Shown here: piece after piece, positions 27,472 through 30,815 of the stretch
How positions within the stretch are numbered: the first letter of the stretch is position 1
How the letters are laid out: each line of letters starts with the position of its first letter
From: Pseudomonadota bacterium
GTDB lineage: Bacteria > Desulfobacterota > Desulfobacteria > Desulfobacterales > RPRI01
Direction: 5' to 3'
DNA length: 45,039 nucleotides
Assembly: GCA_043825875.1 (NCBI GenBank)
Contig: JBDRRF010000074.1
Coordinates: forward strand, 1 to 45,039
Translations under genes and position numbers: made by a program
Notes under the pieces: generated by a model
What the model saw: the letters and a program-made list of their open reading frames with translations, nothing else
Databases searched by the model: none
What the model was told of the DNA's origin: nothing

Positions 27472-28890
27472 TTGAAAACACAGGAAGAAAAAATTAAACC
27501 ATTCAGGCTAGTAAAATATTTCTCTTTTTCAAGCCTTATTGTACTATTTGCAGGAATTATGGTGTTGACAGTTTTAAATACTCACTGGGTTAGAAAAACA
27601 CAGCTAAAAAAAAGTGAAGAATATGCGTTTCTTATTGCGGCAAATCTGAATCATCAGCTTTTTACACAATTTATTATTCCGGCTTCAATTAAATACGGAA
27701 AAATACAGCTTAGAAACAAAGAGCAATCTGAAATTGTAGATAATATTGTTAGCAGTACTCTACATGGGTACAAAGTGGATAATGTAACTATTTATAGTGT
27801 TGAAAAAAATATCGTATCGTACAGTTTAGATAAAAACATAGTGGGGAAAGAAAACCTAGGGGGGCAGGAATATTTTAGAGCACTTTTAGGCGAACCTACA
27901 ACAAAACTGGTTCAAAGGGGCAATTTTATTGAAATTCTGCTTGGTCTTTATTCTAAAAACAAAATGGTTACTTTTGCACCTCTTCGTATTGAGAAAGCAT
28001 ATCCAGGATCTACAGGTCCCATAATAGGCGTTATTGAAATTGAACAGGATTTATCAGAAGATTATAAAAGTATGTTTAAATTTCAGCATGTTGCAATTAT
28101 TGCAATTACAGTTGTAATGAGCAGCCTTTTTGGCATTCTTGTTTTTTTCGTCAGAAAGGGAGAAAAAATAATTAAAAAACGTGCTATGGAGCGATTGATT
28201 CTTGAAGAACAACTAAGGCGAGCCGAACACTTATCAACTTTGGGTGAAATGATAGCCGGTGTTTCCCATGAAATAAGGAATCCTTTAGGAATTATCAAAA
28301 GTTCAGCCGAACTTTTGAAGAAAAAAATCGTTGCGTTAGATCCTTCCAACAAGGTTCCGGATATTATAGTCGAGGAATCTGTTCGACTTAATAAAATAAT
28401 CACGGATTTTTTAAATTTTGCAAAACCAAGAGAACCTGATTTGGTGCCTTGCAATATTGAAGATATTATTGAAAAAAATCTTAATTACCTGTCACAGCAG
28501 TTTGAAGAAAAAAATATTAGTGCCGAATTAAAAAATATATCCAATATCCCGGAAACATCAGCTGATTCTAATATGCTCTATCAGGCATTTTTAAATATAC
28601 TTATAAACAGCATGCAGTCTATGCCGGATGGAGGTAAAATATATGTCAGCATTATCTCTGATCAAAGCAATATTAATATTATTCTTGAAGATGAAGGAGC
28701 AGGAATTCCCGAAGATATTTTGAAAAAGATATGGGATCCTTTTTTTACTACTAAGGAAAAGGGAACCGGTCTTGGTCTTATAATTGCTAAAAATATTATT
28801 GAAGCTCATAATGGTAAAATCGAAATTTCAAACAGGTCTTCTTGCGGTGTGAAAGTGGTAGTTATAATTCCTGTTCAAAATGGAAAATAA
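27472..28890 (+). CDS. Membrane sensor histidine kinase
   Basis: Two TM segments; HEIRNPL H-box; N, D.G.GI, PFFTTK and GTGLGL boxes. Confidence 0.93.
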
Positions 28891-28892
28891 TT

Positions 28893-30275
28893 ATGGAAAC
28901 AATTTTAATTGTTGATGATGAAAAAAACTATCCTCCGATAATAAGCGCAATTCTTGAAGAGGAAGGATATGAAACATTAGTTGCAAATAATGGCCTTAAT
29001 GCTCTGGAAATAATAAATAACTCCGACATTGATCTTGTCCTTACCGATATGAAAATGCCGCTTATTGATGGGATAGGACTTTTGGAAAGAATCAAAATAT
29101 CAGATCCCGATCTTCCAGTAATAATGATGACAGCTCATGGAACTGTCGAAAAAGCAGTAGAAGCCATGCAAAAAGGGGCTTACAATTACATACTAAAACC
29201 ATTTGATAATGAGAGGCTCATACTTTTTGTAAAAAAGGCTGTTAAGATATACAGCATTATCAAAGAAAATAAACAGCTTCGTAATGTTGTAGAATCACAA
29301 TATAAATTCGGTAACATTATCGGTAAAAGCAAAGCCATACGAGATGTTTTTGAAACTATACAAAAAGTATCGCCAACATCAGCAACTGTTTTAATAGAAG
29401 GAGAAAGCGGTACCGGAAAAGAGCTTGTCGCAAAATCTATTCATTTTAACAGCCCAAGAAGTGAAAAACCATTCATACCCGTAAATTGCTCCGCTTTTGC
29501 TGAAAATCTCCTTGAAAGCGAGCTGTTTGGCCATGAAAAAGGAGCCTTTACCGGAGCTGTTGCTATGAAAAAAGGAAGATTTGAACTTGCAGACAACGGC
29601 ACTCTTTTTCTTGATGAAATATCCGAATTATCTCAGGGCTTACAGGTGAAATTACTTCGTGTACTCCAGGAAAGAACCTTTGAAAGAGTTGGGGGGGTTA
29701 AACCGATTACAGTAAATATCCGGGTCATTGCAGCAACAAATAAGCATTTAAAAGAGGAAGTAAGACAGGGCCATTTCAGAGAAGATCTTTTTTATCGCCT
29801 CGATGTTTTAAATATTAATATTCCTCCTTTAAGACAAAGGCTGGAAGATATACATTTACTTGTTGAGCATTTTATAAACAAGTACGCCGGGCAAAGGAAA
29901 GTAGGGCAACCTGTTACTGGTGTTGATACGGAAGTTGAGCGTCTTTTATATGATTATACCTGGCCCGGAAATGTCCGCGAGCTTGAGAACTTTATTGAAA
30001 GGGCTATTATATTATGTGACAGCAACATTATAAGGGTTTCCGACCTTCCGAGAGAATTTAGGGATAATGTCTACAATACCCTGCATTTTGAAGGAATTCC
30101 GGCTAATGCAAAATTATATGAAACTTTGGATTTAGTTGAGCAGATAATGATTAAAAGAGCTATGAAAATGGCAAATAATGTTCAGTCACATGCGGCTGAA
30201 TTGCTTGGGATAGGAAAAAGCGGCCTTAATCAAAAATTAAAAAAACTCAATATTGATACAGCTAAGGAACAATAA
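28893..30275 (+). CDS. NtrC-family sigma54-dependent response regulator
   Basis: REC (IVDDE, TDMKMP, KPF), GESGTGKE, GAFTGA and Fis-type HTH; ATG 2 bp after the kinase stop. Confidence 0.94.
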   Translation: METILIVDDEKNYPPIISAILEEEGYETLVANNGLNALEIINNSDIDLVLTDMKMPLIDGIGLLERIKISDPDLPVIMMTAHGTVEKAVEAMQKGAYNYILKPFDNERLILFVKKAVKIYSIIKENKQLRNVVESQYKFGNIIGKSKAIRDVFETIQKVSPTSATVLIEGESGTGKELVAKSIHFNSPRSEKPFIPVNCSAFAENLLESELFGHEKGAFTGAVAMKKGRFELADNGTLFLDEISELSQGLQVKLLRVLQERTFERVGGVKPITVNIRVIAATNKHLKEEVRQGHFREDLFYRLDVLNINIPPLRQRLEDIHLLVEHFINKYAGQRKVGQPVTGVDTEVERLLYDYTWPGNVRELENFIERAIILCDSNIIRVSDLPREFRDNVYNTLHFEGIPANAKLYETLDLVEQIMIKRAMKMANNVQSHAAELLGIGKSGLNQKLKKLNIDTAKEQ

Positions 30276-30277
30276 AA

Positions 30278-30372
30278 ACGAATAAACCGGTTCAAGAAAT
30301 TGAACCTGTTTATTCGTATTATTTTCAGTATATTGTATAATTGATTAATTATATTGGTTCAAGAAATTGAAC
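30278..30372. promoter_or_regulatory. Two identical palindromes GGTTCAAGAAATTGAAC (30289-30305, 30356-30372), putative activator UAS; the first lies inside a long hairpin (30278-30317)
   Basis: Exact 17-bp duplicates with dyad GTTCAA-N4-TTGAAC, about 150-230 bp upstream of a sigma54 start site. Confidence 0.65.
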
Positions 30373-30492
30373 TTTTTGATTATTGGTATGAAATATTATA
30401 AAGATTTAATATTTGGGCAGAGAGTTCGCTAATAAGTATAACTATCTTAATTATAAGGACAATCGAAATATTTATTTATGGTAACAATGAAT

Positions 30493-30508
30493 TGGCAAGG
30501 TATTTGCT
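30493..30508 (+). promoter_or_regulatory. sigma54 promoter
   Basis: TGGCAAGGTATTTGCT, close to consensus TGGCACG-N4-TTGCW. Confidence 0.75.
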
Positions 30509-30519
30509 TATACTAATAT

Positions 30520-30592
30520 TAGCCCGATAAAATAATTCTTCTTTCCTCCTTAGCGGTCAACTGGACAAATTTCAGTTGGCCGCTATTTTTTT
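30520..30592 (+). ncRNA. Predicted sigma54-dependent small RNA with anti-Shine-Dalgarno tract
   Basis: Promoter about 12 nt upstream; no ORF; TTCTTCTTTCCTCCTT followed by a strong hairpin and T7. Confidence 0.6.
30551..30592 (+). terminator. Rho-independent terminator
   Basis: TAGCGGTCAACTGGA/TTCAGTTGGCCGCTA stem (G-U pairs valid on the + transcript) followed by TTTTTTT. Confidence 0.8.
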
Positions 30593-30620
30593 ATAACAAT
30601 TGCTATAACCAAACAATTAT

Positions 30621-30762
30621 GAGCCAGTTTCAAAACGATCCATTTTGGCCGATCTCTGCGTTGGACTCAAATTTCAATCCTCGAAATACTGAATGTATTC
30701 CTGTGGTTGAAATTTTCGCCCGCCTTGAGCTTGACCAAACTGAAACGTTTTGAAAGTGGCTC
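30621..30762. mobile_element. 142-bp MITE
   Basis: 17-bp terminal inverted repeats (16/17 match, GAGCCASTTTCAAAACG), flanking TTAT direct repeat, internal palindrome, partial second copy at 6054-6097. Confidence 0.8.
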
Positions 30763-30815
30763 TTATATCGAAAAATCGAAATGGGGATATTATTTGAACA
30801 ATTGCTATGGGAAAA

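Follow-up and report, generated by a model that had tools for sequence, protein, structure and literature searches.

Small RNAs (sRNAs) transcribed from sigma54 promoters under an enhancer-binding protein include, as these systems are described, Qrr of Vibrio (activated by LuxO), CrcZ of Pseudomonas (CbrAB) and GlmY of enterobacteria (QseEF). Qrr needs Hfq, as do RybB and MicA of Salmonella, and CrcZ and GlmY act as protein decoys. In Myxococcus, the kinase PxrK, the NtrC-type regulator PxrR, an enhancer region, a sigma54 promoter and the sRNA Pxr lie in a row and co-evolve, and in the available text Pxr is a processed RNA with three stem-loops (PMC5684412). In Desulfovibrio vulgaris, according to the accessible parts of two regulon studies, the sigma54 response regulators DVU0679 and DVU0653 target non-coding RNAs directly downstream, Dv_sRNA2 and an ncRNA, respectively (PMC3333781, PMC4641369), and in the accessible part of a third report RybB and MicA are short RNAs that shut down several outer-membrane protein (OMP) mRNAs (PMC1804206). 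Here we describe a locus at positions 27,472 to 30,592 of a 45,039-nucleotide (nt) stretch of Desulfobacterales DNA (contig JBDRRF010000074.1; the whole stretch is termed the window), at which genes for a sensor kinase and an NtrC-type regulator are followed by a predicted sigma54-dependent sRNA. The RNA is probably activated by the adjacent pair and probably represses the synthesis of outer-membrane beta-barrels, as judged from comparative sequence analysis. An earlier note on this DNA had rated the locus its best candidate for an undescribed system; the layout is already known from PxrR-Pxr and DVU0679/DVU0653, and it is the RNA family, which has no Rfam entry, and its class of targets that appear to be new.

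The kinase gene (27472..28890, + strand; 472 amino acids (aa), assigned from Pfam, hydropathy and a structure model) precedes that of the sigma54 response regulator (28893..30275, +; 460 aa, REC-AAA+(GAFTGA)-HTH by Pfam). Behind the regulator lie two identical 16-nt strandless dyads, GTTCA-N6-TGAAC, candidate upstream activator sites 1 (30290..30305) and 2 (30357..30372), both recognised from sequence and from dyads conserved and phased in homologues. They are followed by a sigma54 -24/-12 promoter (30493..30508, +) with correct GG-N10-GC spacing and a predicted start at 30519-30521. The RNA would begin with an unpaired 5′ arm of ~32 nt (30520..30551, +; from fold and alignment) that is antisense to translation-start regions and is closed by a CU tract (30536-30551), and would end with an intrinsic terminator (30551..30592, +) consisting of a 15-bp perfect hairpin (30551-30585) and a U7 (T7) tail, giving a predicted length of ~73 nt. 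The dyads, the near-consensus box, the unstructured arm and the + facing terminator all lie where the earlier note had placed them. Its statement that no + strand open reading frame (ORF) follows also holds, as none was found after the promoter that starts before 30619, where a 44-aa frame begins inside a genome-wide repeat. With rpoN present in the genome and a GAFTGA activator encoded alongside, a -24/-12 promoter of this spacing is what is expected of a sigma54 sRNA controlled by a two-component activator. Across the genome there are 66 boxes of this kind and 10 perfect dyads, and a dyad lies 40-400 nt upstream of three of the 66 boxes, compared with 0.05 expected, so that the arrangement is far beyond chance; all three, the only perfect dyad-plus-promoter sites in the genome, are copies of this RNA. 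No IHF consensus was found between the activator sites and the promoter.

Compared with Pxr, as Pxr is described, the window RNA consists of a free antisense arm plus a single terminator hairpin where Pxr has three stem-loops (SL1 and SL2 conserved), and it has no Rfam match. The DVU0679 and DVU0653 systems likewise combine a sigma54 regulator with a downstream non-coding RNA in a sulfate reducer and, in the accessible parts of the reports, differ in their binding sites, in the GAYTGS motif of DVU0679 and in a narrower distribution. Their motif is not shared, and none of the eight site rows containing GTTCA or TGAAC in the available supplement is this dyad. Several dispersed copies exist, as for Qrr, whereas the window regulator scores 368 against 800 bits with the LuxO model, far under the cut-offs of both LuxO and GlrR, and Hfq was found in none of 61 genomes of the order (control search positive in 5 of 14); ProQ was not found in this genome. 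The resemblance to RybB and MicA lies in the computationally predicted pairing of the window RNA family with the 5′ regions of several OMP mRNAs; the differences are control by sigma54 and a two-component system in place of sigmaE, the lack of Hfq, and a long pairing that covers the Shine-Dalgarno (SD) sequence, AUG and first codons. None of the papers listed in full-text searches of chiefly open-access literature describes this RNA, which a transcriptome table outside them could still contain, and literature searches turned up no Desulfobacterales sRNA.

The region behind the regulator was examined for 80 of 107 listed kinase orthologues, and 30 RNA copies, selected using a promoter pattern, were aligned. 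The promoter TGG and TGC are invariant in all 30; the arm is kept in sequence and the hairpin in structure only, with double-sided changes at 12 of 12 pairs and 89% paired, versus 23-45% in slid controls. A search model built from promoter plus RNA, and so independent of the dyad, matched at 38 of the 80 loci, 10 of which had not been used in training. It also matched 116 of 150 genomes in the order, in many cases at a distance from the regulator, and four copies are present in this genome; an unfiltered search of 15 further kinase loci added one clear and two weak matches. Of 28 copies, 24 have dyads upstream and only two downstream, with a spacing of 74-80 nt in 17 of 19 cases, as befits conserved activator sites at enhancer distance; the 67-nt spacing in the window is one helical turn short of this. 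No Rfam 15 family reached its gathering threshold in the window, the best weak match being the Bacillus ncr982 (29 bits against 50). A small promoter 'stem' suggested by RNAalifold was discarded as an artefact arising from the promoter sequence itself. Tandem duplicate copies, each with its own promoter, occur at five loci.

A conserved unpaired seed, a covarying terminator and the lack of any conserved encoded peptide are the features of a base-pairing trans-acting sRNA, and we are almost certain that this is a real, conserved sRNA gene. It is extremely improbable that there is no independent RNA, with the hairpin acting only as terminator for the convergent TPR gene, or with the tract being the ribosome-binding site (RBS) of a tiny minus-strand ORF, as in a type I toxin-antitoxin-like arrangement. 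A convergent TPR gene does come next in many loci, and the family arm read on the minus strand gives an SD and an ATG. In many other loci, however, the gap between regulator and TPR gene is under 100 nt and holds no cassette, copies occur at unrelated loci, and the T tail faces +; the hairpin folds at -23.3 kcal/mol on the + strand compared with -16.3 kcal/mol on the minus strand, where purines, not Ts, trail it. Frames on the minus strand that begin at the anti-AUG span 4-36 aa and are unconserved past their first codons, and an ATG was not found in 6 of 35 copies or in the window copy. The promoter, CU tract and hairpin recur behind orthologous regulators, as the earlier note had suggested checking. 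Two RNA runs from the same study carry no piece covering the RNA gene and only scraps of other parts, a result neutral as to transcription.

The link to the adjacent kinase and regulator is apparent from co-occurrence. Among 150 genomes of the order, 112 have both kinase and RNA, 14 the kinase only, 4 the RNA only (three of these are 69-87% complete) and 20 neither; in a phylum-wide sample the RNA is present in 14 of 150 genomes, all of them among the 47 in which the kinase sensor region (27496-28221) is well conserved. An RNA driven by some other enhancer-binding protein, its tie to the neighbouring pair being positional only, is very unlikely. Such a protein could be one of the more than 30 sigma54 activators in this genome, and 42 of the 80 orthologue loci have no RNA match beside the regulator, but the RNA occurs almost exclusively with the kinase and the dispersed copies retain the same dyad. 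Moreover, in loci of records titled Desulfatiglandales, where the recognition helix of the regulator is altered, the RNA is kept and this dyad is gone. The route from sensor to activator to base-pairing sRNA proposed in the earlier note is therefore favoured by the conservation, covariation, phased sites and co-occurrence as the probable one. At nine other loci, the partner regulator of the kinase orthologue ends in a different DNA-binding domain, and most kinase-orthologue loci of records titled Syntrophobacteraceae have no RNA match.

In the kinase, two transmembrane helices flank a periplasmic single PDC/Cache-fold domain and are followed by HisKA and HATPase domains (Pfam, hydropathy). The sensor part has no Pfam family and no sequence match among solved structures; in the structure model (pLDDT 86) its nearest fold is the extracellular domain of WalK (E value 3e-7), consistent with a single PDC/Cache fold, a fold that does not disclose the signal. 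Most of the 151 genomes searched in the order have a clear orthologue of the kinase, and among titled records, kinases of 54-79% identity come mainly from Desulfobacterales. More distant orthologues, in Desulfovibrio-like genomes, are located behind aspartate aminotransferase (aspB) and pgi genes, recognised by eye from their translations, and are followed by GSFTGA regulators whose best match is the window regulator. In the accessible parts of the published studies, DVU3223 and DVU3222 are aspartate aminotransferase and pgi (PMC11784015, PMC10920352), and DVU3220, whose partner is DVU3221, is a GSFTGA regulator of 459 aa, conserved in both Desulfobacterium and Desulfatibacillum (PMC4641369, PMC3333781). 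Because of the best matches, the GSFTGA motif, the placement behind aspB-pgi and the lack of a Lon linkage, the window pair is likely, by way of these proxy genomes, to be orthologous to DVU3221/DVU3220; the regulators are 460 and 459 aa long, and the order aspB-pgi-kinase-regulator is shared by the GSFTGA-type genomes. The two differ in that DVU3221/DVU3220 was published without a motif, whereas the window pair has the dyad and a predicted RNA output. No RNA matched in five distant genomes (four Desulfovibrio-like), nor did a search for dyad plus RNA there give anything convincing, and the RNA output may therefore be limited to the Desulfobacterales and some neighbours.

For the published D. 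vulgaris regulators, the comparison covered the DNA-binding domains, and the matching row is labelled DVU3305. The available rows of supplement file 2 of PMC4641369 seem to be offset by one row around DVU3220-DVU3334. The sequence labelled DVU3305 fits, at 38 of 40 residues by eye, the GSFTGA regulators encoded behind pgi, and that labelled DVU3334 fits the Lon-linked regulator. The DVU3305 label on the matching row is thus probably a one-row shift. Orthology to DVU3305 itself was rejected, as that system is Lon-linked, has a different site and has its own orthologue in this genome; a separate DVU3303-3305-like module at C55:1407-7435 comprises genes for a Lon-type protease, a kinase, a sigma54 regulator and a transporter.

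The accessible texts give DVU3221/DVU3220 no motif and no DNA-affinity-purified chip (DAP-chip) data, and guess at a nitrogen role ('speculated nitrogen regulator'; PMC4641369, PMC3333781). A nitrogen-status signal, with uptake pores remodelled on nitrogen limitation, would alter the input alone and leave room for the RNA mechanism; we consider it possible but doubtful. It draws on the likeness to DVU3220, whose target was itself guessed in those texts. The scan of this genome for dyad plus promoter gave no amt, PII or glnA gene. NtrB is cytoplasmic, unlike the window kinase with its periplasmic sensor. A fourth RNA copy (C5:60993-61089) adjoins, in divergent orientation, what by eye is a nifH-PII-PII-nifDK-like cluster, and it is this nif-side copy that has no dyad within ~310 nt; it may be under another activator. 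Our best guess for the signal is a periplasmic or envelope cue, since the output appears to be porin control, and this is the least certain part of the proposal.

In sequence, the family arm complements an entire translation start, from the SD through the spacer and AUG to lysine codons. The earlier note had proposed an anti-SD RNA; pairing with the SD is borne out, yet the family arm also spans the start codon and first codons of OMPs. Searching 151 genomes with the antisense pattern returned the RNA copies and 35 other places, 34 of which were examined. At 33 of these a signal-peptide-like protein begins (N-terminus judged by eye), and 24 have outer-membrane barrel support, 21 from barrel families and three more from a porin profile that was built from the pattern matches themselves; matches to DESULF_POR1 are all below cut-off, several covering the N-terminus only. 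The other exported proteins number seven of the 34. Pairing between an RNA and the porin start of its own genome is more stable than swapped pairing by 4.5 kcal/mol (n=19, p=1e-4, row and column means removed), and the same holds for the 16 genomes not used as seeds. With one genome per family the difference is -4.7 (n=14) and, with the SD part removed, -4.1. Neither GroEL starts (+1.0 kcal/mol, p=0.98, n=20) nor the regulator's own start (+0.3 kcal/mol, p=0.85, n=40) covary with the RNA. Compensation can be seen in individual cases, as in a genome (G034) in which the ATG is doubled in both porin and RNA. Porin-start pairing has a median of -27.6 in RNA-bearing (n=37) and -21.3 in RNA-lacking genomes (n=19), a comparison of little weight because SD strength differs too, relatives are not independent and one genome labelled RNA-lacking has a copy. 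Such seed-target covariation in trans points to a DESULF_POR1-like major porin as the main target in most of the family. One further porin (in genome G095) has an SD and spacer that match the RNA perfectly, together with AGG for ATG and an internal stop, and is probably a broken gene or an assembly error.

In this genome the arm has drifted. The consensus anti-AUG is replaced by CUU in the window copy and in three of the four copies overall, the fourth lacking an anti-AUG too; the CUU is shared with a close relative. The best predicted targets here are not the major porin, and the window copy is exceptional in the family in this respect: three DUF1302 genes, two TonB-dependent receptors and one Porin_5 gene make up six of the top seven, and the Porin_5 gene pairs through a 16-bp contiguous helix. 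The DUF1302 proteins carry a signal peptide and a terminal Trp, and we take them to be outer-membrane barrels. Among 998 strong-SD genes, barrel-like genes make up six of the top 10, compared with 0.8 for arms shuffled in their non-SD part only, and none of 90 shuffles reached six. The targets named in the earlier note, cooS, thiolase and an hcrB-like gene (so named because its NCBIfam score, 235.7 bits, is under the cut-off of 404.55, which disqualifies it as hcrB), were not upheld: with the four copies averaged they rank 752, 17 and 102 of 3583, and with the window copy alone 460, 64 and 49.

Several points weigh against barrels being the targets or the pair being the activator. The orthologue of the major porin ranks only 358 of 3583 here (1092 for the window copy), with a longest helix of 7 bp. 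At 1e-30 the porin profile matched nothing in three genomes of the same genus; together with this genome, these gave 17 non-RNA pattern matches, none of them porin-like by eye. The barrel label was set after viewing the matches, three of which are paralogues, and gene starts were our own ORF calls. The signal-peptide excess is partly built in, as signal peptides are to be expected from a pattern that holds ATG plus lysine codons. The covariation statistic carries no tree correction, and the pairing energies leave mRNA accessibility out. One of the four RNA copies here has no dyad within ~310 nt. Finally, a probe with the anti-SD part only is also barrel-rich, with nine in its top 100, equal to the real arm.

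This last result is what would be expected of a real RNA that acts as a broad anti-SD repressor, or mainly on metabolic or periplasmic binding protein mRNAs that are not OMP mRNAs, with the OMP signal arising from strong SDs and lysine-rich signal peptides. Porin SDs are indeed stronger in RNA-bearing genomes (-13.4 versus -10.2), the other exported proteins are represented among the pattern matches, and thiolase ranks high. The covariation with porin starts nevertheless survives removal of the SD and is absent for GroEL, and shuffling the non-SD arm alone abolishes the enrichment, so that we regard such a broad repressor as unlikely.

In the preferred reading, the kinase would phosphorylate the NtrC-type regulator, which, bound at the GTTCA-N6-TGAAC sites, would activate the sigma54 promoter. 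The 5′ arm of the resulting RNA would pair with outer-membrane beta-barrel mRNAs across the SD, start codon and first codons and block their translation by ribosome occlusion, likely without Hfq. What was computed directly comprises the elements, their conservation, structure covariation, kinase co-occurrence and RNA-porin covariation, and transcription, DNA binding, the direction of the effect and independence of Hfq are parts that we infer. We give an even chance to a broader proposal, that in the Desulfobacterales the DVU3221/DVU3220-type system acts almost solely through this new sigma54 sRNA, which would silence barrels independently of Hfq and ProQ, through an arm that imitates the complement of a generic exported-protein start and is retuned to the porin of each genome. 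If true, the sigmaE envelope circuit of RybB/MicA would have a counterpart here that runs on sigma54 and needs no chaperone, and the pair would be the most conserved, hitherto unexplained two-component system of sulfate reducers. A widespread RNA family, for which promoter, activator, binding motif and target class are all predicted, would exist in an order apparently without Hfq. The DVU3220-type regulator, unmapped by two regulon studies, gains a candidate output and motif, and its nitrogen-regulator label is challenged. RNA-porin covariation of this kind is an unusually clean natural case of co-evolution between a trans sRNA and its target, and porin control bears on substrate uptake and toxic-compound handling by these major sediment carbon oxidisers.

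Two further elements lie at the edges of the RNA gene. Immediately past the regulator stop codon is a long hairpin (30278..30317, +; -21.7 kcal/mol), possibly the operon terminator of the kinase and regulator genes. The first dyad forms the top of this perfect-armed hairpin, and in several relatives a dyad overlaps the regulator stop codon. Between the RNA and the convergent TPR gene, and outside the system, is a strandless 150-nt palindromic repeat (30618..30770), with 293 blastn matches in the genome, 248 of them longer than 120 nt. It resembles a miniature inverted-repeat transposable element (MITE) or repetitive extragenic palindromic (REP) element, is covered at very high depth by the DNA run, and fragments of it appear in RNA contigs at 90-95% identity.

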